A stretch of DNA of 64,000 bases from Planctomycetota bacterium (lineage in GTDB: Bacteria > Planctomycetota > SZUA-567 > H5-PLA8), in NCBI GenBank assembly GCA_038227875.1, contig JBBRPR010000025.1, positions 1 through 64,000 of the forward strand, read 5' to 3'. Shown piece after piece: positions 532 through 29,295 of this stretch (position 1 is the stretch's first letter; each line of letters begins with the position of its first letter). Under the pieces are notes generated by a model. That model saw only the letters and a program-made list of their open reading frames with translations. It was not told where the DNA came from and did no database searches. The translations under genes and the position numbers were made by a program.

Positions 532-810
532 GCCACTGGTGGCTGGCCGTTAAGCCACCAGTGCCGACCTCGCAAACAAACCCCGCCCGTCCGAGTCGCC
601 ACCGATCGCGCGAAGCGCCTGCGGCCTGAAAGGCCGCTCGTCAACAGCCGAGGGCGGCAGCCCTCGGTCCGCCCCACTCGGATCCCCGCGCCCTGGAAGG
701 GCGCCCGATTCCCGCGCAACCGTCGCAACGCGTGGCACGCACCACCCAAACAGGCCTCACCACGCAGGGAGAGTCCCACCCCCGCCGTTCCTTTGCGTCT
801 TTGCGTGAGA
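532..810. repeat. Cluster of REP-like short palindromes in a non-coding region
   Basis: cactggtggc...gccaccagtg, ggcctgaaaggcc, ccgagggcggcagccctcgg, gccctggaagggc, ctttgcgtctttgcgt; no credible ORF. Confidence 0.55.
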
Positions 811-14657: not shown

Positions 14658-15878
14658 ATGCTGATCGCTGGGTTCTACTTCTTCTACTTCCTCGCCGCAG
14701 GGTTGCTCGTCCCATTTCTTCCGCCGTATCTAAAACAGACGCTCGGATTTGACGGCACGCAGGTCGCCACGATTTCGGCGCTCGCATACGCCGGCATGAT
14801 TTTCATTCCGCCGATCTGGGGCATGATCTCCGACCGCACGCGCCAGCCGGCCAAGTTGCTCAAAATCGCCAGCTTCATCACCGCCGTTTCGTTCGTGCCG
14901 ATGCTTTGGGCCAAATCGTATGCGGCCGTGATTGTCGTGATGGGTGTGTACGCGCTGGCCATCGCGCCGATCACGACGCTGGCCGATACCGTCTGCGTCT
15001 TCGAAGCGCGGCGCATCGGCACTGAGTACGGCCGCTTGCGAATGTGGGGCTCGTTCGGGTACGTCGTCAGCGGCACCCTGTTCAGCGCCTATGTCAACCG
15101 GACCGGACGCGACGCCGACGTGGTCCCGCTCTCACTGCTGATGATCGTCGGATACGCCGTGGTCTCCGCGCTGAATAATCCGCCGCTGGCGGAAGCCCGC
15201 CATTCGCCGCCCACGCTTCACGACGCGCGGCGCCTGTTGATGCGCCCGTCGTTCGCGCTGTTTCTGGGCGCGGAGTTCATCCACTGGACGGCGCTCTCCG
15301 CGTACTACTTGCTGTTCACAATTCACATGACCGACCTGCACGCCAAGCAGTACATGTGGATCACGGTCATGATTTCCGTCGCGACCGAGATGCTGCTGAT
15401 GTGGACCTTCGGCAGCATTCGCCGCCGCGTGCCGGTGATGGTGATCCTGGTGGTGGCGAGTGTCGTCAGCAGCGCGCGCTGGCTGCTGGTCTCGCAAATG
15501 ACCGACGGTGTTGCCGTGGCCGCGCTGCAGGGATTGCACTGCTTCTCGTTCGCCGCGTGTTACGTGGGCTCAATTACCTATATGGAACGCGCGGTGCCGA
15601 CGCCGCTGCTCGCCACGGGCCGAGCACTGTTTTCGTCGCTGGTGATGGGTCTCGGTGGCGTCGTCGGCACGATGCTCGCCGGCCGGCAGTACGACATCGG
15701 CCACGGCCAGCGCGCGTATTTCGTTTCTGGAATTCTGGAACTCGGCACGCCCGTGCTGCTCCTGGCGTCGTGGCTTGCGGCGAAGAAATGGGACGACGTC
15801 AAAGCGCAGGAAGCGGCAGCGCTCCCGCCGATGGCCGCCGATGCCGCAGTCGCATCAGTCGCTACCGACGTAGTCTGA
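14658..15878 (+). CDS. MFS transporter (MFS_1-like/HcaT-like)
   Basis: About 12 hydrophobic segments; WGMISDR and YGRLRMWGSFGY motifs. Confidence 0.88.
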   Translation: MLIAGFYFFYFLAAGLLVPFLPPYLKQTLGFDGTQVATISALAYAGMIFIPPIWGMISDRTRQPAKLLKIASFITAVSFVPMLWAKSYAAVIVVMGVYALAIAPITTLADTVCVFEARRIGTEYGRLRMWGSFGYVVSGTLFSAYVNRTGRDADVVPLSLLMIVGYAVVSALNNPPLAEARHSPPTLHDARRLLMRPSFALFLGAEFIHWTALSAYYLLFTIHMTDLHAKQYMWITVMISVATEMLLMWTFGSIRRRVPVMVILVVASVVSSARWLLVSQMTDGVAVAALQGLHCFSFAACYVGSITYMERAVPTPLLATGRALFSSLVMGLGGVVGTMLAGRQYDIGHGQRAYFVSGILELGTPVLLLASWLAAKKWDDVKAQEAAALPPMAADAAVASVATDVV

Positions 15879-15917
15879 GCGACTCATTCATCATTCATAG
15901 TTCATCGTTACGAGTAA

Positions 15918-16006
15918 CGGAAGGTGTGGGGTTCGAACCCACTTGCCCCGAATGAGGGCTGGAGATTAGCAATCTCCCCCGGCGCGCCATTCTCCGGCGA
16001 CCTTCC
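15918..16006 (-). tRNA. tRNA-Ser(GCT)
   Basis: Anticodon arm GGAGA-TT GCT AA-TCTCC, long variable arm, GGTTCGAACCC, G73. Confidence 0.9.
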
Positions 16007-16022
16007 AGATTTTATCCTGCTG

Positions 16023-16050
16023 AGGACTCGGGCCACGTGGCCCGAGTCCT
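16023..16050. repeat. Perfect 28-bp palindrome in a tRNA spacer
   Basis: aggactcgggccac|gtggcccgagtcct. Confidence 0.85.
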
Positions 16051-16068
16051 ATTTCACAATATATTTTA

Positions 16069-16156
16069 CGGAGGACAGAGGACTTGAACCCCACTCCCTC
16101 TAGGGGAGCATACCGTTTTCGAGACGGTCTCGGCGCGCCTGTCCGATTTATCCTCC
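16069..16156 (-). tRNA. tRNA-Ser(CGA)
   Basis: ACCGT-CT CGA AA-ACGGT, long variable arm, GGTTCAAGTCC, G73. Confidence 0.9.
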
Positions 16157-16231
16157 AGAAATACGTCCAGTGTTCGAGGCGGCGCTGCATTCTGGATCTG
16201 CAGCGCCGCAGCTTCACGTTTCTGTTGCGAC

Positions 16232-16822
16232 CTACTCCTTCAATTCCGCATTCCAGTACGCGTCGGAGACAAACTTCTCCCAACTTGCGCGGTACGGGAT
16301 GCGTGCGAGGACCAGCTTTGGCGTCCACGTCGGCTTGCACGGCGCCTTGAAGAGCGTTACGCCAGCCTCCGCGGGCGTGCGATTGGCCTTCTTGAAATTG
16401 CACTTCACGCACGCCACCACGCAGTTGTTCCACGTCGACGTACCGCCGCGCGAACGCGGTTGAACGTGATCGATGGTCAGTTCCTGTGTGCCAGGCTTCA
16501 CGCCGCAGTACTGGCACATGTAGCGGTCGCGGCGGTAGAGATTGCTGCGCGAAAACGCCACGCCGCGGACGGGAACTTCGCCGTACTTCGCCAGCACGAT
16601 CACCTCCGGCACGGGAATTTCCAGCGTCGCTGTGCGCACGCAGCGCTCACCTTCAGCGACGCGCAGCTGCGACCAGGAATCAAAATCGTGGAGCGAGTAA
16701 TCGTCGGACTTGATTACGCGCGCCGAGCCGTCGTAGACCTTGGTGAGCGCGTTGAGCACGGTGGTGATATCCACCGGAACCCAATTGCGATTCAATACCA
16801 GAGTCGCATCTTCAAGAACCAC
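16232..16822 (-). CDS. HNH endonuclease (McrA/HNH_5-like) inside the tRNA array
   Basis: RRDRYMCQYCG...TIDHVQPRSRGG...WNNCVVACVKCNFKK; AGGAGG SD before the GTG start. Confidence 0.92.
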   Translation of the reverse strand: MVLEDATLVLNRNWVPVDITTVLNALTKVYDGSARVIKSDDYSLHDFDSWSQLRVAEGERCVRTATLEIPVPEVIVLAKYGEVPVRGVAFSRSNLYRRDRYMCQYCGVKPGTQELTIDHVQPRSRGGTSTWNNCVVACVKCNFKKANRTPAEAGVTLFKAPCKPTWTPKLVLARIPYRASWEKFVSDAYWNAELKE

Positions 16823-16941
16823 AATCCCCTCCTGAAATGTCGAAGTGCGAATGTCGATTGTCCAATCGCAAGCGCGACAATTCTCGTCCCTGGTTTACTG
16901 ACTTTACTTCACTCCCTTACCACACGTTTCGTACTTCAATT

Positions 16942-17015
16942 TGGCAGAGCGTTAGGGAGTTCAACCCCACCGCAAGGTTTTGGAGGCCTCGCAGGTCCGC
17001 CGACCGTCACGCTCT
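16942..17015 (-). tRNA. tRNA-Trp(CCA), atypical
   Basis: GAGGC-CT CCA AA-ACCTT; T-loop TTGAACT; encoded CCA. Confidence 0.8.
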
Positions 17016-17102
17016 AGCGAATGTTGAAGGATGAATGTCGAATCTCGAATTCACCCAACTCACTTCTTACTCAGTCCTCGGCCCTCAGTCCTTTCGTACA
17101 GA

Positions 17103-17183
17103 TGGAGGCGTGAGGAATCGAACCTCATCAGCCCTGACGGGCGCTCGATTTACAGTCGAGCTCGGCTCCCAGGCCACGTCTCC
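17103..17183 (-). tRNA. tRNA-Tyr(GTA)
   Basis: CTCGA-CT GTA AA-TCGAG, long variable arm, GGTTCGATTCC. Confidence 0.88.
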
Positions 17184-17203
17184 AAACTTTTCGACGTTCC
17201 AAG

Positions 17204-17275
17204 TCCGCCCGCTGGGAATCGCACCCAGACCTCGACTTCCGCAAAATCGCGTGCGGTCTGTTACACTACGGGCGA
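17204..17275 (-). tRNA. tRNA-Arg(GCG), rare anticodon
   Basis: CGATT-TT GCG GA-AGTCG; T-loop TGCGATT; acceptor TCGCCCG/CGGGCGG. Confidence 0.78.
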
Positions 17276-17309
17276 AAAACTTGCGGTCCTTTCCTTCTCG
17301 ATTGTTAAG

Positions 17310-17380
17310 TTCGCCCGCCGGGAATTGCACCCAGTCTTCGATCTCGCAAGATTCGCGTGCTATAGTTACACTACGGGCGA
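17310..17380 (-). tRNA. tRNA-like paralog of tRNA-Arg(GCG) with an ambiguous anticodon (TGC by position); possibly pseudo-tRNA
   Basis: Body nearly identical to the neighbouring Arg(GCG) gene; arm CGAAT-CTTGCGA-GATCG; no G3:U70. Confidence 0.6.
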
Positions 17381-17409
17381 AGCTCTCAGTCCTCAGTCCT
17401 GTCCATTAT

Positions 17410-17484
17410 TGGCGCTCTCGCGAGGACTTGAACCTCGATCAACCGGTTAGAAGCCGGACGCTCTATCCATTGAGCTACGTGAGC
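17410..17484 (-). tRNA. tRNA-Arg(TCT)
   Basis: TCCGG-CT TCT AA-CCGGT; D-loop AATGGATA; encoded CCA. Confidence 0.9.
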
Positions 17485-17519
17485 GCAATTCGATACTCAG
17501 TCCTCAGTCCTTCCGTTCT

Positions 17520-17594
17520 TGGCGCTCCCGCGAGGACTCAAACCCCGATTGGCCGGTTCGAAGCCGGCTGTCCTATTCATTGAACGACAGGAGC
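17520..17594 (-). tRNA. tRNA-Arg(TCG), uncommon anticodon
   Basis: GCCGG-CT TCG AA-CCGGC; encoded CCA. Confidence 0.85.
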
Positions 17595-17618
17595 AAAATT
17601 CCGTATTCCTTTCACACA

Positions 17619-17693
17619 TGCCGCGAGTGGGATTCGAACCCACATAAACCTGGGTCTGAAACAGGCGCCTATGCCATGTTCGGCTACCGCGGC
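17619..17693 (-). tRNA. tRNA-Leu(CAG) with short variable region
   Basis: CCTGT-TT CAG AC-CCAGG; variable region only TTTAT; GGTTCGAATCCC; A73. Confidence 0.82.
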
Positions 17694-17723
17694 GTAACTT
17701 CAGCATCTCCTTCTTCTTCACGA

Positions 17724-17806
17724 TCAGGGCGGGGAGAGTCGAACTCCCATGGGCTTAAACCCGGCGGTATCTCGAACCGCTGCGTATGCCTTTCCGCCAC
17801 GCCCCG
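17724..17806 (-). tRNA. tRNA-Leu(GAG)
   Basis: GCGGT-TC GAG AT-ACCGC (C33), long variable arm, A73. Confidence 0.85.
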
Positions 17807-17831
17807 TGATTTGCACTTCTTGCTTCCTCAC

Positions 17832-17913
17832 TGCTCCCGAGAGGACTCGCACCTCTACGGCCCGACGGCCAGCCAATTTTAAGTCGGCCGCGTCTGCATT
17901 CCGCCACGGAAGC
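17832..17913 (-). tRNA. tRNA-Leu(TAA)
   Basis: GCCGA-CT TAA AA-TTGGC, long variable arm, T-loop TGCGAGT. Confidence 0.87.
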
Positions 17914-17939
17914 TTCTTCCCCTCTTTCCATCACCAATT

Positions 17940-18015
17940 TGGTGGAGACAGTGGGAGTTGCACCCACCTCACCGAGTATGCAAAACTCAGTCGCCCCTAC
18001 GGTACATGTGCCCCC
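17940..18015 (-). tRNA. tRNA-Ala(TGC)
   Basis: TGAGT-TT TGC AT-ACTCG; G3:U70 in the acceptor stem; ACCA end. Confidence 0.82.
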
Positions 18016-18049
18016 AACTCAGTCCTCAGCACTCAGTCCTTTCTGTTAA

Positions 18050-18120
18050 TAGCCACTGAGGGAATCGAACCCCCACCTTCAGTATGTAAAGCTGACATCC
18101 TCCCGTTAGACGAAGCGGCC
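18050..18120 (-). tRNA. tRNA-Val(TAC)
   Basis: TCAGC-TT TAC AT-ACTGA; GGTTCGATTCC; A73. Confidence 0.85.
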
Positions 18121-18131
18121 AGGTACGGCGC

Positions 18132-18263
18132 AGGACTGAGGGCCGAGGACTGCGGACTGAGTTAACTGCGAGCGCGCTTCGCTCTTTCTCAATCACGTTC
18201 CAAATTCAAGATTTCAATGCGCGCCAGCGCGCCGCAGTTACTCAGTCCTCGGCCCTCAGTCCT
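18132..18263. repeat. Long inverted repeat built from heptamer (GACTGAG/CTCAGTC) units
   Basis: aggactgagggccgaggactg...agttaactgcgagcgcgct pairs with agcgcgccgcagttactcagtcctcggccctcagtcct. Confidence 0.8.
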
Positions 18264-18273
18264 TTCTGTAAAG

Positions 18274-18346
18274 TTGCGGGCAACGGAATCGAACCGTCAT
18301 TGCAGGCTTATGAGACCCGCCAGGCGCCCACGCCTAGCCACCCGCC
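18274..18346 (-). tRNA. tRNA-Met(CAT), initiator-like 1:72 mismatch
   Basis: CGGGT-CT CAT AA-GCCTG; G1/A72 mismatch; A73. Confidence 0.8.
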
Positions 18347-18393
18347 ATTCCTCGTTCATCACTAATCACACATCACTTCACTTCACTTCACCA

Positions 18394-18466
18394 TGGGGCC
18401 CCCGGGTTTCGAGCCCGGTTCTTCCGTGCTTCAAACGGACGCAATGACCACACCTGCTCAAGCCCC
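18394..18466 (-). tRNA. tRNA-Phe(GAA)
   Basis: TCCGT-TT GAA GC-ACGGA; T-loop CTCGAAA. Confidence 0.83.
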
Positions 18467-18485
18467 GATCCTTGCTCATCATTTC

Positions 18486-18561
18486 TGGCGCTTCCGGCCG
18501 GAGTCGCACCGGCTAATGCCACCTGGACAGGGGGGCAGCTCCACTCTTTGCCATCGGAAGC
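18486..18561 (-). tRNA. tRNA-Asp(GTC), atypical
   Basis: CCCCC-CT GTC CA-GGTGG (C37); G73 followed by CCA; T-loop TGCGACT. Confidence 0.78.
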
Positions 18562-18599
18562 GACTAAAAATTCCGTACTCGACGTTCATCCTTTCCGAG

Positions 18600-18670
18600 A
18601 GGTCACGGCGGGAATCGCACCCACATCGTTCGCTTTGCAGGCGAATGCCTAGCTTTTCGGCCACGTGACC
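18600..18670 (-). tRNA. tRNA-Cys(GCA)
   Basis: TTCGC-CT GCA AA-GCGAA; U73. Confidence 0.88.
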
Positions 18671-18707
18671 AGCCTGTCTTCGTTCTCTTCCGTGATCGGG
18701 GCGCTGG

Positions 18708-18802
18708 CAGCCCGTTGATGAAAGTCTGTTCCGCCAAATTCGTCCGTGAAGCGCCTGGCCTTAAAACGTTCGCGGCGTGGCAGAAGAATTTTCAACGGGC
18801 TG
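18708..18802. mobile_element. MITE-like element, copy 1 (~95 bp)
   Basis: TIR cagcccgttga...tcaacgggctg; interior matches the reverse complement of the copy at 20901-20998. Confidence 0.7.
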
Positions 18803-18824
18803 CGGCGCGCCCCGATCACTCCGC

Positions 18825-19688
18825 TCACTTGCCTTCAAACGCAGCGGTCTTGAAGTGCTCCTTAAAGAGGTCCGCGGCGCGTCGACCGACGGCGCGCATC
18901 GCTTCCTTGCTTTCCACGATCTCGCCCTTCGCTTCGCGGCGGACGTCTTCGATCATCGCCTCAACGACCGTGCGCGTGTCTTCCATGCCCAAGCCGGCCG
19001 GCAACTTGTCGAGCACATGCTGGAGGCGCATCGGCGTCACCCACTCGTCGGCGATCGTCTTGGCGTCCTCGAGCACCTTCAACTTCGCCGGATCCTGAAC
19101 GACCTGCGGCGTGCGGCGTTCGCTGAAGTCGTCGCGCTTGTGCTTGGCGATCACGCAGCTGCCGTCGTTCGTGCGCAGCTCAATGATCGGGCGGAGCACG
19201 ACGCCTTCCCGCTTGTGTTCGCCCATCCCGTTGCGCTGCGCCTGGACTGACGGCGCGTCGCGCTGAGCATCGATCGCTGCGAGGTCGGTCGTGATGCGTT
19301 CGAAGTGAACGACCTCAAGACCCAGTTCTCGTGCGACTTCGGCCATGTCCGGAACCGAGAGCCAGCTGTCGCCGATCTGTACGTCGAAGACGATGAACTT
19401 CAGCGACGTACCGTAGGCGTCCGACATGTTCTGACACTTGCCACCGTAGGCTTCACCAAAGACCGTGACCTCCGGATGCCCGAGCTTCTCGAAACGCGCC
19501 TTCAGCTCCGCGGCATCGAAGAGCGCCATGAACTTCGGCAGGCTCTCGCCGCCCGGGAAGAAGTCGAGCGCCGCGTTCTTCCACGCTACGTTGGCCGACG
19601 TGCCGTGAAGCTTTTCCAGCGCGTAGCATTCCTTGAACAGGAGGATGTCCTGGCAGCGGTACAGATTTTCGATGTGCATGTAACCCAC
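18825..19688 (-). CDS. ATP-dependent RNA ligase, T4 Rnl2-like, inside the tRNA array
   Basis: Nucleotidyltransferase motifs I EKLHGTS, III FGEAYG, IIIa FIVFDV, IV EGVVL, V IAKHKRDDFSE, plus an Rnl2-like C-domain (WVTPMRLQHVLDKL, MIEDVRRE); GAGGA SD. Confidence 0.85.
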   Translation of the reverse strand: MGYMHIENLYRCQDILLFKECYALEKLHGTSANVAWKNAALDFFPGGESLPKFMALFDAAELKARFEKLGHPEVTVFGEAYGGKCQNMSDAYGTSLKFIVFDVQIGDSWLSVPDMAEVARELGLEVVHFERITTDLAAIDAQRDAPSVQAQRNGMGEHKREGVVLRPIIELRTNDGSCVIAKHKRDDFSERRTPQVVQDPAKLKVLEDAKTIADEWVTPMRLQHVLDKLPAGLGMEDTRTVVEAMIEDVRREAKGEIVESKEAMRAVGRRAADLFKEHFKTAAFEGK

Positions 19689-19718
19689 GGCTTCGTCCTC
19701 CTTTTCTCTTTCCTCAAT

Positions 19719-19794
19719 TGGGGTGACCTACGGGAGTCGAACCCGTTCTTCGAGCTTCACAAACTCGCGTGCGAACCGGCACACTCAGGTCTCC
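19719..19794 (-). tRNA. tRNA-His(GTG)
   Basis: CGAGT-TT GTG AA-GCTCG; G-1:C73; encoded CCA. Confidence 0.88.
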
Positions 19795-19819
19795 AACAAA
19801 TCCTCTCATACTTCTCCGA

Positions 19820-19891
19820 TCGGACGGGGAGGAGTCGAACCTCCACCTGCTGCGTATCAGACAGTTATGCAGACCCCTACACCACCGTCCG
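19820..19891 (-). tRNA. tRNA-Ile(GAT)
   Basis: ACTGT-CT GAT AC-GCAGC; GGTTCGACTCC; A73. Confidence 0.85.
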
Positions 19892-19911
19892 TTTTTCAAC
19901 ATCGTTCCAGA

Positions 19912-19985
19912 TCAGGACGGCCGGATTCGAACCGGCGGTCTCCTGCGCCCAAGGCAGGCGCTCTACCAAGCTAAGCCACGTCCTG
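19912..19985 (-). tRNA. tRNA-Pro(TGG)
   Basis: CCTGC-CT TGG GC-GCAGG; C1:G72; canonical D and T arms. Confidence 0.93.
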
Positions 19986-20020
19986 TTTGTACGTTTCCTT
20001 TCAATCATCGCGTTCGTGAG

Positions 20021-20095
20021 TCGGGATGGCCGGATTCGAACCGGCGACCTCCTGCTTCCGACGCAGGCGCTCTGGCCAAGCTGAGCTACATCCCG
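20021..20095 (-). tRNA. tRNA-Pro(CGG)
   Basis: CCTGC-GT CGG AA-GCAGG (G32, A37); C1:G72. Confidence 0.92.
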
Positions 20096-20111
20096 GTGCC
20101 GTTTTCTGCTC

Positions 20112-20183
20112 TCGGGCGCCCAGGAGTTGAACCCGGCCGGCGAGCTTATAAGACCCGCCAGTGCCACCGGCACATCACGCCCG
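20112..20183 (-). tRNA. tRNA-Ile(TAT), rare UAU anticodon
   Basis: CGGGT-CT TAT AA-GCTCG; GGTTCAACTCC; A73. Confidence 0.8.
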
Positions 20184-20234
20184 GCGCACGCTTACTTCGT
20201 TACTCTCCGCTTCCTGACTTCTCTGCTTTCCGCA

Positions 20235-20305
20235 TTGGCCCGCGAGGTGTCGAACCTCGATTCCCGGGTTCAAAGCCCAGTGTCCTACCGTTGGACGACA
20301 GGCCA
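20235..20305 (-). tRNA. tRNA-Gln(TTG)
   Basis: CTGGG-CT TTG AA-CCCGG; U1:A72. Confidence 0.9.
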
Positions 20306-20413
20306 GGGGAATGTCGAAACCTGAATGGCGAATGTCGAATTTTTTGAATCGCGCACTCTCAATTTGTTGCCTCGTTTCTGTTCTTCGACATTCGTCATTC
20401 GAAATTACCCCGA

Positions 20414-20485
20414 TTGCCGGGCAGGGATTCGAACCCCGCTTTCCTGATTCAGAGTCAAGCGTCCTACCTGATAGACGACCCGGCA
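20414..20485 (-). tRNA. tRNA-Gln(CTG)
   Basis: CTTGA-CT CTG AA-TCAGG; U1:A72. Confidence 0.9.
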
Positions 20486-20573
20486 TTCTTTAATTCAGAA
20501 CTATGAATGATGAGTGATGAATGAACTGCTGGCTGGTCGGTCAATTCATCGTTCATCGTTCATCATTTAGACG

Positions 20574-20646
20574 TGCGTCCCGTGGGGCTCGAACCCACAC
20601 CTCTCCGCTTAAAAGGCGGCTACTCTGCCACTCGAGTTACGGACGC
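20574..20646 (-). tRNA. tRNA-Lys(TTT)
   Basis: GCCGC-CT TTT AA-GCGGA; GGTTCGAGCCC. Confidence 0.9.
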
Positions 20647-20686
20647 AAATTCGATTCATCCTTGCTCATCCTACGCTCAGTGCCCA

Positions 20687-20759
20687 TGCCCCCGGGAGGA
20701 CTTGAACCTCCACCACACGGAGTAAGAATCCGGAATGCTGCCGCTAACACCTCGGAGGC
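20687..20759 (-). tRNA. tRNA-Lys(CTT)
   Basis: CCGGA-TT CTT AC-TCCGT; GGTTCAAGTCC. Confidence 0.85.
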
Positions 20760-20804
20760 GAACTGTCGCTTTATTTCTCCTGACTTCTCTCTACCTGACC
20801 TGAA

Positions 20805-20875
20805 TGGAGCGACCGGGATTCGCACCCGAAACGCGACCGTGCGAAAGTCGAATGATCCTGTTTCACCATCGCCCC
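20805..20875 (-). tRNA. tRNA-Ala(CGC)
   Basis: CGACT-TT CGC AC-GGTCG; G3:U70; T-loop TGCGAAT. Confidence 0.87.
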
Positions 20876-20900
20876 ATCTATTTCTCAACCTGACCCATAG

Positions 20901-20998
20901 CAGCCCGTTGATAGACCCTTGTACTGCGCCGCGAAACGCCTTTACTGCCAGGCGTTTCACGGAGAATCCTGGCGGAACAAGGCTTATTCAACGGGCTG
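20901..20998. mobile_element. MITE-like element, copy 2 (~98 bp) with a 4-bp ATAG flanking duplication
   Basis: atag-cagcccgttga...tcaacgggctg-atag; homologous to copy 1 in the opposite orientation. Confidence 0.75.
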
Positions 20999-20999
20999 A

Positions 21000-21071
21000 T
21001 AGCCCCACGGGGAGTCGAACCCCGGTTTCCGGATTGAAAGCCCAGCGTCCTGACCACTAGACGATGGGGCC
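21000..21071 (-). tRNA. tRNA-Glu(TTC)
   Basis: CTGGG-CT TTC AA-TCCGG; GGCCCCATCGTCTAG 5' end. Confidence 0.92.
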
Positions 21072-21130
21072 GAAGTACTGCCGTCTTGCCCTGCCATCCC
21101 GATCGATCGTTTCTTCCACTCTTCCGCACA

Positions 21131-21201
21131 TAGCCTCACGGAGATTCGAACTCCGGCTTCCGGTTCGAGAGACCAGCGTCCTGCCGCTAGACGATGAGGC
21201 C
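21131..21201 (-). tRNA. tRNA-Glu(CTC)
   Basis: CTGGT-CT CTC GA-ACCGG. Confidence 0.9.
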
Positions 21202-21265
21202 AAACTGTGCCGACTCCTGATTTCTATTCCTCTTCCCGCTTCTCGTTTCCTAATTCCCGAACCCA

Positions 21266-21336
21266 CTGCGAAGGAGGGAATCGAACCCCCATCTCCCGCT
21301 TAACAGGCAGGCGCGCTACCATTCCGCCACTTCGCA
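21266..21336 (-). tRNA. tRNA-Asn(GTT)
   Basis: CCTGC-CT GTT AA-GCGGG; U1:A72; G73. Confidence 0.9.
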
Positions 21337-21448
21337 ATAATTGGAGTTGAGGACTGAGTGTCGTGATTCGATAGTTGCATCACTGGCACTCGTTTGAATA
21401 TCTCAGTCCCCAGGTCTCCGATACTTTCTCCCGTTTCCGTTTTCCCGA

Positions 21449-21517
21449 AGCCGCAGTCAGGAATCGAACCTGCCGAATCTCTTTACGAAAGAGACTTGTG
21501 GCCCAGCACACAGCGGC
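21449..21517 (-). tRNA. tRNA-Thr(CGT), compact D-arm
   Basis: TCTCT-TT CGT AA-AGAGA; 69 nt; GCC 5' end. Confidence 0.78.
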
Positions 21518-21559
21518 GAGCCCGCCTGTTTCGAACGCCGTTCGTGTTTCGGGCTCGAA

Positions 21560-21629
21560 AGCCGCCGTCGGGAGTCGAACCCGCAAGCCCTCTCTACCGA
21601 AGAGGACTGTGAAGCCGTCACACAGCGGC
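21560..21629 (-). tRNA. tRNA-Thr(GGT), compact D-arm
   Basis: CCTCT-TC GGT AG-AGAGG (C33); 70 nt. Confidence 0.78.
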
Positions 21630-21659
21630 AACGATCCAAATGCTACGTCCAGGCTCCAG

Positions 21660-21727
21660 AGCCGCGGGCGGGAGTCGAACCCGCTGCGCCTCTTTACAGG
21701 AGAGGCCCGTGACCCTCACACCGCGGC
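21660..21727 (-). tRNA. tRNA-Thr(TGT), compact D-arm
   Basis: CCTCT-CC TGT AA-AGAGG (C33); 68 nt. Confidence 0.78.
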
Positions 21728-21768
21728 GCGGCGCATTTCACTTCTCTTCCCTTCGAATCCGACTTCTT

Positions 21769-21842
21769 TGGAGCGGTCGGCGGGAATCGAACCCGCATCT
21801 CCAGCTTGGCACGCTAGCGCTCGTCCACTGAGCTACGTCCGC
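21769..21842 (-). tRNA. tRNA-Gly(GCC), first gene of the array
   Basis: CTAGC-GT GCC AA-GCTGG; U73 followed by CCA. Confidence 0.92.
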
Positions 21843-22024
21843 AACAACACCACCGTTTCATTCCTCGCCAGATCAGTAAAGACAATGCGACACCTCACTC
21901 GGGAACAGCGGTCCCCGCGCCTGCACTGCGACTGCGAATACGTATGGACGGACAGACTTTCTAAGCGCCGCCAGCGGGTCGGTTGCCGGCGGTTACTGGA
22001 ATTCGCTTAGTTTGGATTCGGGCT

Positions 22025-22062
22025 AAAAAAAAACCTTCCGGGGTTTCTGGCCCCGGAAGGTT
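22025..22062 (-). terminator. Intrinsic terminator (attenuator) upstream of the tRNA array
   Basis: Minus strand AACCTTCCGGGG-CCAGAAA-CCCCGGAAGG followed by 9 T. Confidence 0.9.
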
Positions 22063-22097
22063 GGACTCTTTTTAAGAAGTCCTTCTCTTCTAGGGCC
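22049..22097 (-). promoter_or_regulatory. Putative antiterminator overlapping the leader-ORF stop codon
   Basis: GGCCCUAGAAG (22097-22087) pairs 10/11, including one G-U, with CUUCCGGGGCC (22059-22049), the terminator 5' arm; encloses hairpin GGACUUCUU/AAGAGUCC. Confidence 0.7.
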
Positions 22098-22266
22098 TTA
22101 GCTTTCTCGTATCGTTTTCCACCACCGCCGCGACTGCCGGATTCTGATAGGTCGATGTACCGATACGTTCCAAACTAAACAGCATGGCGGCTCGTCCGAG
22201 TTGGGGTTGTTTCCCCATTCGTAGAGACCATAGATGCGCAGGTATCGGTGACAGACAGCAAACCAT
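22090..22266 (-). CDS. Putative 58-aa pan-codon leader peptide MVCCLSPIPAHLWSLRMGKQPQLGRAAMLFSLERIGTSTYQNPAVAAVVENDTRKLRP
   Basis: AAGGAG SD 12 nt upstream of ATG; all 20 amino acids and 44 distinct codons; TAG 27 nt before the terminator; below the 60-aa ORF cut-off. Confidence 0.75.
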   Translation of the reverse strand: MVCCLSPIPAHLWSLRMGKQPQLGRAAMLFSLERIGTSTYQNPAVAAVVENDTRKLRP

Positions 22267-22300
22267 TTGAATCTAAAGCTCCTTGTTAAGTCTTAATGTG

Positions 22301-22363
22301 AACTAACCCCGCAACTGATTCGATGTCAAGGCAGCCGCTAATGGATTTGTAAATTATTTTTTT
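22301..22363 (-). promoter_or_regulatory. Putative sigma70-type promoter of the leader/tRNA array
   Basis: Perfect TTGACA (22329-22324), 17-bp spacer, weak -10 TTAGTT, upstream A/T tract. Confidence 0.55.
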
Positions 22364-22380
22364 AGCAAACGGGACTCAGG

Positions 22381-22998
22381 CTACTTCTTGCTTTTCTTGC
22401 GCTCGTTGAAATCGGCTTCCGGATCGGGGAGATCGGAGTTTCGCGTGGGCCTGTTCTTCTCAGCGTTGTCGTCTTTTTCCTTCTCGGGACCGGTGGGTCC
22501 GCCGGAGGGATTGATGACGCCGGTGTAGTACGTGATCGGTTCCTGTTCAGCGTCGGGCTGGTAATCGCGGTAGAGCAGTATGGCGATCTGGTACTGGCCC
22601 TTCGGGTATTCGTGGATCGGCAGCGCGTCCTTTCGCAGATCGAAGCGGTCGATCGCATTGCGGCTGGCGCGGCAGCTCCAGTAGAGTTTGCTCTCGGCGG
22701 AAAGTTTCACCGGCGTGGCGGAATCTCCCGCCTCATGGATCCACTCGTGGCCGGCCAGGATCCGGTTCATGAACAGTTGCGTGCCGGGCTTGGCGGGATC
22801 GGGTTCGGAAAGGATGCGCTGGTAGAGCGCCATCACTTCCATCGACGGACTGACGACGGAGTCGTCGTTCACCAGGACTGGTTCGGGCGCGCGCAGCAGG
22901 AAGGCGTAGGCCAGACCAAAGCAGCAGGCGGCGAGCAGGCCGATCACGAAGATGACTTCGAGCGCTCCGAATTTTCGTGGTGTCGTACTCGTCGCCAT
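22381..22998 (-). CDS. Hypothetical membrane-anchored protein
   Basis: N-terminal TM segment; GC3-biased codon usage. Confidence 0.7.
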   Translation of the reverse strand: MATSTTPRKFGALEVIFVIGLLAACCFGLAYAFLLRAPEPVLVNDDSVVSPSMEVMALYQRILSEPDPAKPGTQLFMNRILAGHEWIHEAGDSATPVKLSAESKLYWSCRASRNAIDRFDLRKDALPIHEYPKGQYQIAILLYRDYQPDAEQEPITYYTGVINPSGGPTGPEKEKDDNAEKNRPTRNSDLPDPEADFNERKKSKK

Positions 22999-23060
22999 GA
23001 GAACCGCAATCCACTATCCGTTTGAACGTAGTAGTTCGCGGAAGGGAAGTTCGGACATGC

Positions 23061-23822
23061 TTACGGAATCGCAAAGCGCTGCTGCTTGGCGTCCCACGCT
23101 CCCTTGGTCGCGTTGACTTTCAGCCACGCGGCGGCCAGATCGGGGCTCGACCAGCGCACGTACAGGACCGGCGTTCCGAACAGCGCTTCCTTGTGTGTCG
23201 CGATCTTCCGCGCGGGATCGCCCTTTTCGGGGGGCGGCAGGTCGGCGGGAATCTCTTCGTACGTGGCTGCCGCGCCGACATTCTTGAGCGCCGTCAGATC
23301 GGAGATCGCGCGCTGCGCAACTCTGCGCACTTCGATGGGTTGAGCGGGATCGAGCGCGCTGCGCAGCAGGTCGTAGTCGGACGCTTCCAGAGCTCCACTT
23401 TCGGCCAGAAACAGACTGCCGTGCGCGGCGATGATCTTGGAGCTGACGTTACCTTCGGTCATCGCTTTTCGGAAGACGCGCAGCGCCATCGCGGGGTTCG
23501 ACCCGCAGTAGGTGTAGTAGCGCGAGACGTCAGCGTCGTTGTTGTGAAACTGAACCAGTCCGAACATCTCGTTCAGGCCGTCGTTGATGACGACGGGTTT
23601 GCCATCGTTGTCCTTCTGGCTGAAGAGCTTCGTGTCGGCGCCCTGCATTCCGGAGTAGACGGACGCTTCATTGATCCCGGGGCGGAGCACCGCGATGATA
23701 ACGCCCAGCACAATCAGAACGGCGCAGACCAGCTGAACGGGCTTGGGGATCACGGCATTCAAGGTGATCGGCGCAGGCTGAATCAACTGTGCCGGCGCGG
23801 GTTCCGAAACGTCTTTGGACAT
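23061..23822 (-). CDS. Hypothetical single-TM protein
   Basis: LVCAVLIVLGVIIAVL TM helix; coding-like codon usage. Confidence 0.7.
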   Translation of the reverse strand: MSKDVSEPAPAQLIQPAPITLNAVIPKPVQLVCAVLIVLGVIIAVLRPGINEASVYSGMQGADTKLFSQKDNDGKPVVINDGLNEMFGLVQFHNNDADVSRYYTYCGSNPAMALRVFRKAMTEGNVSSKIIAAHGSLFLAESGALEASDYDLLRSALDPAQPIEVRRVAQRAISDLTALKNVGAAATYEEIPADLPPPEKGDPARKIATHKEALFGTPVLYVRWSSPDLAAAWLKVNATKGAWDAKQQRFAIP

Positions 23823-23906: not shown

Positions 23907-25136
23907 TTAGAAGTCAAAGCCGCGGCTGGGCTTTTTCTTCTCGGCTCCCGCGCCGCCGGCACCTCCAGCTCCGGCACCGCCGGGTGCGCGCGTCATTGTA
24001 GAGAGCACGTTGCCACCCTTGGCTGGCGTGGCGGCCTGCTGGTGCTGCAGCACTTCGTCGGCCGAGGTGCCGCGCTTGATTCCGCGGAACATCAGCTGCA
24101 AATCTTCCGGTGAAGAACTGGACGCCATCGCCTGTTCTTCGGTGATCACGCCCTTGCCCCAGAGCGCATAGAGCGCCTGGTTGAAGGTCTGCATCTTGTG
24201 ATGCGCGCCTTCCATGATCGCTTTTTCCAGATCGCGCGTCGAACCTTCTTCGATCAGTTGTTTGATGTACGACGTGTTGAGCATAATCTCGATGGCCGCG
24301 ATGCGTCCCTGGCCGTCGGCGCGCTTCACCAGCCGCTGACTGATGACGCCGCGGAGCACCAGCGCCAGTTGCATGCGGACCTGGTTGGCTTCCGGGCCTT
24401 CGAACGTGTCGAGGATACGATCGAGCGACTGCTTGGCGTCGTTGGTGTGCAGGGTCGAGAAGACCAAATGTCCCGTTTCCGCCGCGGTGATCGCGAAATG
24501 GATCGTCTCGGCGTCTCGCATTTCACCCATCAGGATCACGTCCGGGTCCTGGCGCAGTGCGGCGCGGAGGGCGCGGTGCAGTTCGTGCGTATCCAGACCC
24601 AGTTCGCGCTGGTTGATCGTGCTGAGTTCGTCGGTGTAGACGAATTCGATCGGGTCTTCGATGGTAACGACGTGATTCTGGTACTTCTGGTTGATGTACT
24701 GGATCATCGCGGCCAGCGTCGTCGATTTTCCGGAGCCGGTCGGTCCGGTGACGATGCATAGTCCGTTGGGATGGTCGCAGAGTTCCTTCAACGTGTCAGG
24801 CAGGCCCATCTTTTCGATCGTGGGCACTTCCAGCGGCACGAGTCGCATCACCGATCCGATCAGGCCGCGCTGGATGAACGCATTGACGCGGAAGCGCGCG
24901 TAGCCGGGAATTTCATACGAGAAGTCGGCTTCCATTTCCTGCAGAAACACGCGCATGCGTTCGGCGCCCATCAAGCGGGTCATCGACGCCTTCATGTCTT
25001 CGGCGGAGATTTCAGGATAGCTGGTCTGCGGGATGAGATCGCCGGCGACGCGGAAAAGCGGCGGCCGTCCGGTTTTGATGTGCAAGTCGGAGCCTTGATT
25101 CTGGCCCAGTTCAATGAGTAGCTGATCCAAATCCAT
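23907..25136 (-). CDS. pilT: PilT/PilU-family type IV pilus ATPase
   Basis: GSDLHI, RFRVNAF, Walker A GPTGSGKST, TIEDPIE, LRQDPDVILMGEMRD, TGHLVFSTLH. Confidence 0.9.
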   Translation of the reverse strand: MDLDQLLIELGQNQGSDLHIKTGRPPLFRVAGDLIPQTSYPEISAEDMKASMTRLMGAERMRVFLQEMEADFSYEIPGYARFRVNAFIQRGLIGSVMRLVPLEVPTIEKMGLPDTLKELCDHPNGLCIVTGPTGSGKSTTLAAMIQYINQKYQNHVVTIEDPIEFVYTDELSTINQRELGLDTHELHRALRAALRQDPDVILMGEMRDAETIHFAITAAETGHLVFSTLHTNDAKQSLDRILDTFEGPEANQVRMQLALVLRGVISQRLVKRADGQGRIAAIEIMLNTSYIKQLIEEGSTRDLEKAIMEGAHHKMQTFNQALYALWGKGVITEEQAMASSSSPEDLQLMFRGIKRGTSADEVLQHQQAATPAKGGNVLSTMTRAPGGAGAGGAGGAGAEKKKPSRGFDF

Positions 25137-25322: not shown

Positions 25323-26195
25323 CTACTTTCGGGTATTCAAGAAGTGTTTCGCGCGTTCAACGACTCGATCGAAAATATTCGGATTCTTACGGTCGTCGAA
25401 AAACGCATCCATGTTCAGCCAGACCGGGCCGGGCTCGAGCAGGATCTGCGAGTCCTTTACAATGGTCGCAGACAATCCTGCAGCGTACAGCCGATTCGCG
25501 CATTGACTGACAAAACTTTTGTACTCCCCGCTCACGTCACCAATAATCTTCACGGCTTCTGCGTTACCGATTCCTTTTAGTCTCTGCACGACAGACTCGC
25601 GGCAGCAGCCCTCGGTCGAATCATAAAGTTCGCGAAGTACTTTTACGTATTCCGATGAAAATAGGAATACCGCGAACCGCAATGCATCGGGGAATTGATC
25701 GTCCTTCTGCGACTTCGCGTACGCCATTAATTGTTTTGCAGCACGGATGTCTTCCTCGGTACGATCATTGGTACGAAAATCGGTCCATAGGTCTTCAAGT
25801 TCTTCAACTTCGTCGGCGCGCATGGGGCGGGCAAACGCTTCGAGAAACGACGAGGTTGTGCGAAAGACCAATTGAGGAGAGGCGTCGTGAAAAACGCGAA
25901 CGATGTAACCGTTCAATAATTCACCACAACAGACGCAGAATGGATTTGAATCGTTCTGCTCTGTCAGCGCAACGTAACCAAATTCGTCAGATTGAAAGGT
26001 AAACATTTGATCGAGCGCGACGAATTCAACACGGTACGACTCCAAAACCAAGCCATTCGAGATCGAATACAACTCTCTGACGTCCTTCGGGAACTTCAGT
26101 CTCAGTTTCAACTCAGCCGCAGTCAACTCTTGGTCTGTGGCGCCGGGACGCAGTGTCGCTCCAATCTTACGAAGCTTCTCGATGATGGTTTTCAT
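25323..26195 (-). CDS. SMI1/KNR4 (SUKH) family protein
   Basis: LRPGATDQELTAAELKLRLKFPKDVRELYSISNG N-terminal signature. Confidence 0.75.
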   Translation of the reverse strand: MKTIIEKLRKIGATLRPGATDQELTAAELKLRLKFPKDVRELYSISNGLVLESYRVEFVALDQMFTFQSDEFGYVALTEQNDSNPFCVCCGELLNGYIVRVFHDASPQLVFRTTSSFLEAFARPMRADEVEELEDLWTDFRTNDRTEEDIRAAKQLMAYAKSQKDDQFPDALRFAVFLFSSEYVKVLRELYDSTEGCCRESVVQRLKGIGNAEAVKIIGDVSGEYKSFVSQCANRLYAAGLSATIVKDSQILLEPGPVWLNMDAFFDDRKNPNIFDRVVERAKHFLNTRK

Positions 26196-29200: not shown

Positions 29201-29295
29201 ACCAACGCCTTGCTGGGAACACCCATCTCTTTGGCCAGCTCGTGAAGCTTGATTCCGGCTGGAATACTCGTTGCTTTTTCGACCTTGCTGCTCAT
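26293..29295 (-). CDS. infB: Translation initiation factor IF-2
   Basis: [38 protein letters not shown]; long Pro/Ala-rich N-terminus. Confidence 0.98.

Follow-up and report, generated by a model that had tools for sequence, protein, structure and literature searches.

A long chromosomal tRNA gene array of a Planctomycetota bacterium is preceded by a putative ribosome-dependent attenuator

Long arrays of spare tRNA genes (L-arrays) have been reported from Verrucomicrobia, Planctomycetes, Actinobacteria, Cyanobacteria and other bacteria, and the available parts of three publications describe the HNH gene that accompanies them and their spread by transfer (Santamaria-Gomez et al. 2021, PMC8421152; Morgado and Vicente 2018, PMC5966550; Yano et al. 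2026, PMC12803027). The array of Anabaena is induced by translation inhibitors, and rtcB is co-regulated with it (available text of PMC8421152); the repressor of this trn operon, TrcR, has also been described (available text of PMC10272220). The control of long spare tRNA arrays has been worked out for this one cyanobacterium only, and there it is exerted by a repressor. Herein, we analysed a stretch of 64,000 nucleotides (nt) from a Planctomycetota bacterium (assembly GCA_038227875.1, contig JBBRPR010000025.1, positions 1 to 64,000), hereafter called the window, in which a leader with a small open reading frame (ORF) and a terminator precedes a unit of 34 tRNA genes, an RNA ligase gene and an HNH endonuclease gene. 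We regard it as fairly probable that this unit is a chromosomal L-array which has long been kept in its family, which later received the insertion of an Rnl2-fold ligase, and whose transcription is gated by a ribosome-dependent attenuator.

The window array resembles the trn operon of Anabaena PCC 7120 in several respects. Both are long, co-oriented arrays of additional tRNA genes in genomes that have a dispersed housekeeping set, with a homologous HNH gene attached and RNA-processing genes in or near the array, and a role in translational stress has been proposed for both. The order of the tRNAs, however, is unrelated. The HNH gene lies near the 3' end of the array in the window but upstream of it in Anabaena, and the window array is chromosomal whereas trn is located on a plasmid. 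The ligase of the window is an embedded Rnl2-fold enzyme, in contrast to the co-regulated RtcB encoded elsewhere in Anabaena, and control is apparently by a leader-ORF/terminator attenuator, whereas in Anabaena a repressor acts through direct repeats at the promoter.

The kinship with this type of operon, which had been proposed in a preliminary description made from the letters of the window, was borne out by full-length homology of the HNH protein. The gene (16232..16822, minus strand; 196 amino acids (aa)) had been named an HNH nuclease gene, and its product indeed matches PF01844 at 3e-14. A homologue (31% identity, 98% coverage, 9e-20 by tblastn) is encoded on plasmid delta (NC_003273) of Nostoc/Anabaena PCC 7120, immediately before a run of 24 tRNA genes in a common orientation; the HNH gene adjoining the trn operon is all8564 by the description in the available text of PMC8421152. 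A second homologue lies within a tRNA array carried by a Mycolicibacterium plasmid, and hundreds of phage homologues were found, mostly in mycobacteriophages. The AlphaFold model of the HNH protein was poor (mean predicted local distance difference test score (pLDDT), 60.9) and confident only in the HNH core. PADLOC gave matches to the HNH motif but no membership of a defence system.

As far as the available texts of PMC5966550 and PMC12803027 go, the units of mycobacteria, plasmids and mycobacteriophages are also similar to the window array: with 26-40 tRNA genes each, they serve 19-20 amino acids, are redundant with the chromosome, and have an embedded homologous HNH gene, which is the most widespread protein gene there. 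Unlike the chromosomal window array, these units lie on plasmids or phages; in the same texts the words 'ligase' and 'SPFH' are absent, and no leader attenuator was found. Judged by its genes, the array itself is a further member of the published L-arrays. A literature search of limited reach returned no leader-peptide attenuator of tRNA operons and no relevant follow-up on L-arrays. An embedded Rnl2-fold ligase, an embedded SPFH gene and a leader switch shared with other cargo were not found in the literature searched; the supplementary gene-neighbourhood lists of PMC8421152 may mention such genes.

The array leader was compared with six similar leaders, namely a second copy in the window's own genome (G000) and those of the genomes G002, G003, G008, G011 and G258. 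All features of the window leader lie on the minus strand and are given in the direction of transcription. The first is a promoter-like -35 box, TTGACA (22324..22329), which is conserved in the four aligned array leaders, the second G000 copy, G011 and G258; 17 nt downstream of it is a conserved stretch, GGG-TT(A/T/G)..., with no canonical -10. A Shine-Dalgarno sequence, AAGGAG (22279..22284), stands 12 nt before the start of the leader ORF, which has 58 codons (22090..22266; ATG at 22266, TAG at 22092-22090), ends in frame at a conserved CCC-TAG and has no Pfam match. The stop codon is part of the motif CCCTAGAAG (22087..22095), the proposed 5' strand of an antiterminator, which is invariant in all seven leaders and complementary to the 5' arm of the terminator. 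Between the stop codon and the terminator, a small hairpin (22063..22082) is predicted in every leader; its stem sequence is altered in G002 and G258 with the pairing retained. The intrinsic terminator (22025..22062), with a 12-bp G+C-rich stem, a 7-nt loop and a run of 9 T, is nearly invariant in the seven leaders. It is followed by a spacer (21843..22024) up to the first tRNA gene, which is poorly conserved in the alignment of the array leaders.

The four array leaders thus aligned have in common the TTGACA-like box, the Shine-Dalgarno sequence, the CCCTAG(G)AAG motif and the near-invariant hairpin with 7-9 T. A Shine-Dalgarno-like purine run ahead of the start is present in all seven leaders, as is an ORF of 41-58 codons (exactly 51 codons in four of them), the last codon of which is always CCC before TAG. 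Comparison of whole leaders was less informative. RNAalifold on four sequences supported the terminator alone, when the whole leader was used as a DNA query against the G000 genome, the second copy was recovered by its terminator alone, and no Rfam family matched the leader at E<=1.

The occurrence of the leader was assessed with the pattern of the stop-codon motif followed, after 15-50 nt, by the 5' arm of the hairpin. This pattern had two matches in the G000 genome and none in the reversed control. The second match is on contig 66 (locus L136, about 930-1760, minus strand), where a promoter-like box, a Shine-Dalgarno sequence, a 41-codon ORF ending in CCC-TAG, the hairpin and the terminator recur. 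Its cargo is an ORF for a 181-aa GNAT acetyltransferase starting about 27 nt past the T-run; it matches PF13302, and its likeness to AAC(6'), SpeG and PseH is sub-threshold only. Within the order, the pattern was found in the array leaders of G002, G003 and G008, in a copy at a contig end in G011, and in one false match in 16S rRNA. Among 401 genomes of the phylum it was present in 10, which is about the rate of the reversed control, and only that of G258, a member of another family, came with a terminator and tRNA genes. There, tRNA-Glu begins 9 nt past the T-run and is followed by tRNA-Asp and, further on, by an SPFH gene. Since the GNAT gene and the G258 tRNA-Glu gene start about 27 and 9 nt past the T-run, read-through is the only visible route to their expression. 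The second G000 copy, in front of the GNAT gene, suggests a small regulon under a shared leader switch. About 330 nt after the GNAT gene of G000, past a long palindrome of 7-nt repeats, ARAGORN called a tRNA gene with the anticodon AAT (Ile) (L136, about 560-640, minus strand), an anticodon that is unusual for a bacterium.

Next to conservation, the geometry of the alternative RNA pairings is suggestive of a switch. When the nascent RNA was folded up to the end of the 5' arm of the terminator, the same structure was predicted in all seven leaders (-14.4 to -20.9 kcal/mol): CCCU and (G)AAG of the stop motif form base pairs with CUUC and GGGG in the 5' arm, enclosing the small inner hairpin. In the minimum free energy (MFE) structures of the nascent RNA, 7-10 of the 9-10 bases of the 5' arm are paired with the stop motif in 7/7 leaders, the figure for the window leader being 9 of 10. 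The full-length MFE structure, determined for five leaders, is the terminator (-30 to -36 kcal/mol; -30.9 in G000). The two predicted structures compete for the same arm, and the geometry of the leader is, as far as folding tells, the layout of a trp-type attenuator.

In the trpL, hisL and multivalent ilv leaders, a small ORF is translated, antiterminator and terminator are mutually exclusive, and a ribosome at the leader end masks the antiterminator. The window leader is similar to these in its small ORF, which is predicted to be translated, in its predicted mutually exclusive hairpins and in the expected masking at the stop site. It is unlike them in having no run of a single codon, sampling instead 20 amino acids and many codons; its cargo consists of tRNA genes rather than biosynthetic genes, and no anti-antiterminator ('segment 1') was identified in it.

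Given this layout, the following mechanism is the most likely one. The promoter would drive the 58-codon leader ORF, whose last codon and stop (CCC-UAG plus AAG) would be able to pair with the 5' arm of the terminator about 30 nt downstream. During healthy translation, the ribosome would sit on the Pro-UAG end and mask the antiterminator strand, so that the terminator could form and the array would be off. Pro-stop contexts terminate slowly, and slow termination would hold the ribosome in place. A ribosome that lags or stalls earlier in the leader, because of a missing, uncharged or cleaved tRNA or a translation inhibitor, would let the antiterminator form, and RNA polymerase would read into the tRNA, ligase and HNH genes. 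The peptide samples 20 amino acids and 44 codons, and the leader would therefore respond to decoding failure in general, and not to one amino acid in particular. From sequence, we infer the promoter, the translation of the leader, the direction of the switch, the induction by stress, the use of the tRNAs in translation and the repair by the ligase. The unit had been called inducible in the preliminary description, with a repressor assumed by analogy with Anabaena; the small-ORF/terminator leader lends this proposal real architectural support.

If this mechanism holds, the performance of ribosomes would be coupled to the supply of tRNA directly, with no protein in between, and classic attenuation would extend from amino-acid biosynthesis to the tRNA pool itself, by a regulatory route to L-array induction quite unlike the Anabaena repressor. 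The module comprises about 300 nt of leader and could serve as a simple reporter for 'any-codon' translational stress.

The composition of the leader peptides was considered with regard to this sensing role. All 20 amino acids occur in the leader peptides of G000, G003, G011 and G008, and 19, all except Trp, in that of G002. A complete set is uncommon in sequences of this length: it was present in 1.9% of 51-residue windows of long ORFs of the G000 genome, 4.3% of random open frames of the leaders' base composition with about 51 residues, and 1.2% (47/3817) of real ATG-ORFs of 48-60 codons. At 58 residues, the corresponding values were 3.8% for long-ORF windows and 9.1% for random open frames. 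The G000 leader has 44 distinct codons in 58, whereas the maximum in 50,000 real-ORF windows was 43 (P about 0.003 against random open frames); the counts were 41 of 51 in G011, 39 in G003, 37 in G008 and 34 in G002. It is conceivable, although we would not put it at even chances, that one shared attenuator gates a spare tRNA operon for 20 amino acids and, separately, a GNAT gene, with a peptide under selection for a complete set of amino acids and a broad range of codons, so that a stall at any codon switches on tRNAs and RNA-repair genes. The amino-acid-complete leader is suggestive, a lead rather than a result.

A number of observations speak against a ribosome-dependent switch of this kind. 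Compared with shuffles of the upstream part that preserve dinucleotides, the antiterminator is of modest strength (z, -0.3 to -3.0), and 5-94 of 300 shuffles pair as many arm bases; covariation gives it no support because both strands are invariant. The argument for the putative attenuator thus lies in a conserved and repeated geometry, not in energy statistics. A scan of 15700-23100 for consensus sigma-70 promoters returned 0 sites, so that it is conservation from which the promoter is proposed, and the 182-nt spacer past the terminator could hide a second promoter in G000. As for the peptide, the GNAT leader and the G258 leader, whose cargo is two tRNAs and an SPFH gene, contain only 16 types of amino acid each, and the codon diversity of the G002 leader is ordinary in comparison with random frames. 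The all-20 counts are not independent, because the seven leaders are homologous and come from about five lineages, and amino-acid completeness was noticed post hoc, before it was tested. A search for RNA runs containing this DNA found none. Lastly, three array tRNAs have C rather than U at position 33 in the ARAGORN register and four array genes fall under the default detection threshold of ARAGORN, so that some members of the array may be defective.

The spacer bears on another explanation, in which the array is a constitutive or growth-related extra supply of tRNA with a dosage or codon-demand role, driven by its own promoter in the 182 nt, and the small ORF with its terminator is an independent gene. 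This would agree with the length and poor conservation of the spacer before the first tRNA gene, with the high stability of the terminator and with the weakness of the shuffle controls in several leaders. It is difficult to reconcile, however, with the other copies of the leader, in which the cargo follows so closely on the T-run (about 27 nt for GNAT, 9 nt for tRNA-Glu) that there is no room for a promoter, and with the fact that the leader stays with the array in four genomes despite different flanks. Moreover, published L-arrays are silent in normal growth, according to the available text of PMC8421152. We consider an extra supply of this sort unlikely.

We next turn to the array that the putative attenuator would control. 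With default settings on the 64-kb window, ARAGORN called 30 tRNA genes between 15917 and 21842, every one on the minus strand, and a relaxed threshold added four genes on the same strand. The 34 tRNA genes initially counted are thus recovered, as are their service to all 20 amino acids (20/20 with default and relaxed calls combined) and the co-oriented layout of 17 tRNAs, ligase, 15 tRNAs, HNH and 2 tRNAs, which was confirmed by ARAGORN and the domain matches of the ORFs. The genes lie within 5.9 kb on a single strand with short spacers; a run of this kind, much longer than expected from accretion, is a defining property of L-arrays. The anticodons listed as missing (Gly-TCC/CCC, Ser-GGA/TGA, Leu-TAG/CAA and Val-GAC) are indeed absent from the array. 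The number of genes encoding the 3' CCA had been given as seven and is eight of 34 by the ARAGORN gene ends.

Block 1 (19719..21842, minus strand; ARAGORN and Rfam) has 17 genes in the order Gly-GCC, Thr-TGT, Thr-GGT, Thr-CGT, Asn, Glu-CTC, Glu-TTC, Ala-CGC, Lys-CTT, Lys-TTT, Gln-CTG, Gln-TTG, Ile-TAT, Pro-CGG, Pro-TGG, Ile-GAT and His. Block 2 (16942..18670, minus strand; ARAGORN and Rfam) has 15: Cys, Asp, Phe, Met-CAT, Val-TAC, Ala-TGC, Leu-TAA, Leu-GAG, Leu-CAG, Arg-TCG, Arg-TCT, an Arg-like duplicate called Ala-TGC, Arg-GCG, Tyr and Trp. Block 3, Ser-CGA and Ser-GCT (15917..16157, minus strand), comprises the last genes of the unit. The Rfam tRNA gathering score was passed by 23 array genes, and the long-arm tRNAs had below-threshold, tRNA-Sec-like scores. 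Two of the four genes found at the relaxed threshold only are among these 23, namely Ala-CGC (20804-20876; Rfam tRNA 20805-20875, 44.5 bits) and the tRNA-like gene called Ala-TGC (17309-17380; Rfam tRNA 17310-17380, 43.1 bits). The other two, Trp-CCA (16942-17015) and Asp-GTC (18486-18561), also on the minus strand, had no Rfam tRNA match at E<=1; Trp-CCA is found directly before the HNH gene in four related arrays as well. The 17309-17380 gene nearly duplicates its Arg-GCG neighbour, although the anticodon loop is changed, and for this reason the identity of its tRNA is uncertain.

The relation of the array to the housekeeping tRNAs was assessed in the G000 assembly (9.34 Mb in 176 contigs, rated 88% complete), of which the window is contig 25. 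As the preliminary description had suggested, ARAGORN was run on both the window and the genome, and the array was separated from 51 further tRNA calls, dispersed over 44 other contigs, and one tmRNA. The 30 default calls in 6 kb compare with the 51 calls in the other 9.33 Mb, a clustering well beyond chance. Redundancy is a defining feature of L-arrays, and 28 of the 33 distinct array anticodons are duplicated elsewhere in this 88%-complete assembly, in agreement with the earlier view that the array supplements the housekeeping pool. The anticodons without a second gene are Glu-TTC, Ile-TAT, Ile-GAT, Ala-TGC and Arg-TCT, and their absence outside the array may be due to the incomplete assembly. 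Array genes are 57-79% identical to the best housekeeping gene with the same anticodon, which indicates that they are not recent duplicates. The anticodon stem-loop differed between array and housekeeping gene in 28/28 pairs, and the seven-base loop in 20/28.

Such differences are known from phage tRNA sets that escape cleavage by anticodon nucleases (van den Berg et al. 2023, available text of PMC10264068). Like these sets, the window array consists of redundant tRNAs with anticodon stem-loops that differ from the host's; unlike them, it is on the bacterium's own chromosome and old in the lineage, and no nuclease of housekeeping tRNAs was identified.

The array has relatives in other genomes. 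HNH orthologues with 63-74% identity are present in five genomes of the same family, four of which have the gene in a tRNA array; a second group of HNH paralogues, at about 45-50% identity, is found in 15 of 16 family genomes. (The HNH tally of 28 of 41 genomes includes the unpublished genome G017, on which no result rests.) The survey of synteny that had been proposed earlier yielded homologous arrays with the same order in 4 of 16 other family genomes, G001, G002, G003 and G008. At the default threshold, those of G003 and G002 have 30-34 tRNAs and that of G008 has 17, and that of G001 is cut by the contig end. Their anticodon order is largely that of the window: the 5' part reads Gly, Thr (two or three), Asn, Glu, Lys, Gln, Ile-TAT, Pro, Pro, Ile-GAT and His, and the 3' part Cys, Phe, Met, Val ... 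Leu, Arg, Tyr, Trp, HNH, Ser and Ser. In G007 (L052 10001-10938), an HNH orthologue of 63% identity lies beside a single tRNA-Gly-GCC gene, the first tRNA of the arrays, which gives the impression of an array reduced to its first and last parts. An SPFH/Band-7 gene of 368-376 aa with weak likeness to HflK is carried by the related arrays of three family genomes and by the leader-gated two-tRNA unit of G258 (L048 7567-8691, L049 11234-12364, L051 11325-12431 and L210 2774-3880), and is not found in the window's array; in the related arrays it is situated between the Val/Met block and the Leu block.

The array tRNAs of these genomes have retained their structure. Across 31 orthologous sets with a mean identity of 70%, 194 of the 669 predicted base pairs have compensatory changes that keep the pairing. 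Unpaired cells numbered only 81 of 2501 (97% paired), in contrast to 1416 of 2490 (43% paired) when the 3' partner was shifted by one column. (RNAalifold was applied to these alignments themselves to predict the structure; they contained relaxed ARAGORN calls and only the first copy per genome.) Since pairing has been kept through compensatory changes, the array genes are under selection as tRNAs.

The gene neighbourhood of the array is different in every genome. The HNH identity to G000 is 72% for G001, 74% for G008, 74% for G003 and 64% for G002, and the respective values for IF-2 are 73%, 77%, 79% and 67-69%. HNH divergence parallels IF-2 divergence, and the array therefore looks like an old resident, as opposed to recent cargo, which is what the preliminary description had concluded. 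The simplest reading of these comparisons is that the array was acquired long ago and then inherited vertically, with rearrangements and losses. In the synteny comparison, an empty insertion site was not definable among the relatives, because the 205-aa protein encoded upstream has only about 32%-identical, paralogue-like matches in them.

The ligase has a different history. Its gene (18825..19688, minus strand; 287 aa) starts with GTG behind its own Shine-Dalgarno sequence, and the product matches PF09414 at 4e-12 and phrog_548, 'RNA ligase', over its full length at 1e-27. The AlphaFold2 model had a pLDDT of 90.3, and its best Foldseek match was full-length T4 Rnl2 (2hvr_A; E 8.6e-13, 328 aligned columns, template modelling (TM) score 0.60). 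Residues 139-258 align with residues 186-303 of Rnl2 in phmmer, which covers the Rnl2-type C-terminal helical domain, and the motif I stretch aligns with motif I of T4 Rnl2, with K26, H28 and G29 invariant in 42 homologues. On the NCBIfam equivalog model of Rnl2, TIGR02307, the protein scored 41.3 bits against a cut-off of 197. The first assignment to Rnl2 thus stands for the fold and fails at the equivalog cut-off; on the model, the ligase is Rnl2-like in fold but of a distinct subfamily. It shares with T4 Rnl2 (2hvq/2hvr) the nucleotidyltransferase and C-terminal helical domains, the aligned lysine of motif I and a connection to phages; the sequence identity, however, is only 18%. The family of proteins of about 287 aa to which it belongs had 3839 metagenome matches at E<=1e-5 and is uncharacterised.

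Among 40 relatives the ligase was found in none, the four related arrays included, and since these lack it, it is an add-on and not part of the core of the module. Nearer relatives of the ligase came from 21 viral contigs, including some of jumbo-phage size, four genomes of unrelated phyla and many metagenome contigs. One or more tRNA genes accompany the ligase at 17 of 105 loci, always in the same orientation as the ligase gene, and several of these loci are the same phage seen twice. A metagenome contig of 2.1 kb (L053) carries a 72%-identical ligase in the same kind of array, between Pro-TGG and Ile-GAT, whereas the window ligase lies between His and Cys; about 25 nt upstream of the start are alike in both. 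The ligase is accordingly a later, phage-like insertion into the array, a small cassette that entered such arrays more than once or moved within them. A palindromic element of about 100 nt occupies the spacer between Ala-CGC and Glu-TTC (20898-21001), and a related copy at about 18690-18800, just after the ligase gene, might mark an edge of the inserted cassette.

An Rnl2-type ligase needs 3'-OH and 5'-phosphate ends, and the T4 enzymes Pnk and Rnl1 together repair tRNA-Lys cut by PrrC. The window's unit differs from this T4 system in that it contains no end-healing gene and no kinase-phosphatase partner, and for this reason cuts leaving a 2',3'-cyclic phosphate and a 5'-OH would not be sealable by the ligase alone. 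The role of the ligase in tRNA repair and the link to anticodon nucleases, both proposed in the preliminary description, are conjectural; if they hold, the embedded phage-type enzyme ties bacterial L-arrays to the conflict of phages and hosts over tRNAs. Elsewhere in G000 there are four genes of RtcB-family RNA ligases (contigs 59, 102, 26 and 3), two of which were matched in two pieces and may be interrupted by an insertion or an intein-like element.

The phage connection of the ligase raises the question whether the whole unit is passive or selfish cargo of phage origin, spread and kept by the HNH protein as a homing endonuclease without benefit to the host. Homologues of both the HNH and ligase genes are common in phage genomes, the ligase is missing from 40/40 relatives and has 21 viral contigs among its nearest, co-oriented tRNA genes occur at 17 of its 105 loci, and the neighbourhood of the array changes from genome to genome. 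On the other hand, no integrase or phage structural gene was matched in Pfam among the 10 ORFs between 11.6 and 29.3 kb, and no direct repeats of at least 16 nt bracket 15.9-22.4 kb, as had been maintained for integrase and phage genes in the preliminary description. HNH divergence that tracks IF-2 is unlike recent transfer, the tRNAs are under structure-preserving selection, and a conserved regulatory leader precedes the array, its pattern having 49 matches in IMG/VR viral contigs and none of them with a terminator. Cargo of this kind is a quite improbable explanation. Least probable is that the product of the leader ORF is a small protein of about 51 aa with a function of its own, such as a regulator or membrane peptide, and that the ORF is conserved for reasons other than attenuation: the constant length (exactly 51 codons in 4/7 leaders) and some visibly shared residues would fit, but the peptides are poorly conserved while the nucleotides of the stop codon, hairpin and terminator are invariant, the ORF has no Pfam match, and CCC as the last codon in 7/7 leaders indicates a constraint at the RNA level.

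The flanks of the unit are ordinary genes, as first described. The last array tRNA gene ends 38 nt from the stop of a convergent MFS transporter gene (14658-15878, plus strand), and on the other side are genes for a PilT-like ATPase (23907-25136, minus strand) and IF-2 (26293-29295, minus strand). Directly upstream of the leader is the ORF for the 205-aa protein (22381-22998, minus strand), which has no family, a hydrophobic N-terminus, two paralogues in G000 and weak relatives (about 32% identity) in six family genomes. The PilT-like gene and infB are separated by a gene for a 290-aa SUKH-1 (SMI1/KNR4) protein (25323-26195, minus strand), in a region of low G+C content (49-52%); members of this family are often immunity proteins to polymorphic toxins.

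Short repeats were observed in the spacers of the array. A repeat of about 30 nt, made of two GGACTGAG-like units on the transcribed strand, is present at 17069-17101, 17377-17409, 17488-17520, 18017-18049 and 18240-18272, directly after the 3' ends of the Tyr, Arg-TCT, Arg-TCG, Val and Met tRNA genes. Other tRNA spacers have similar short tandem units, GATGAAC-like or CGACATT-like. These repeats may be processing signals or belong to a genome-wide repeat family. Between tRNA-Val and tRNA-Met (18132-18263), GGACTGAG-like units form a hairpin with 21-nt arms that are 100% complementary and 90 nt apart. Four DNA runs were searched and contained only short contigs of the window's strain or its relatives; a 291-nt contig from the DNA run of another study covers 18529-18819 with 1 mismatch.

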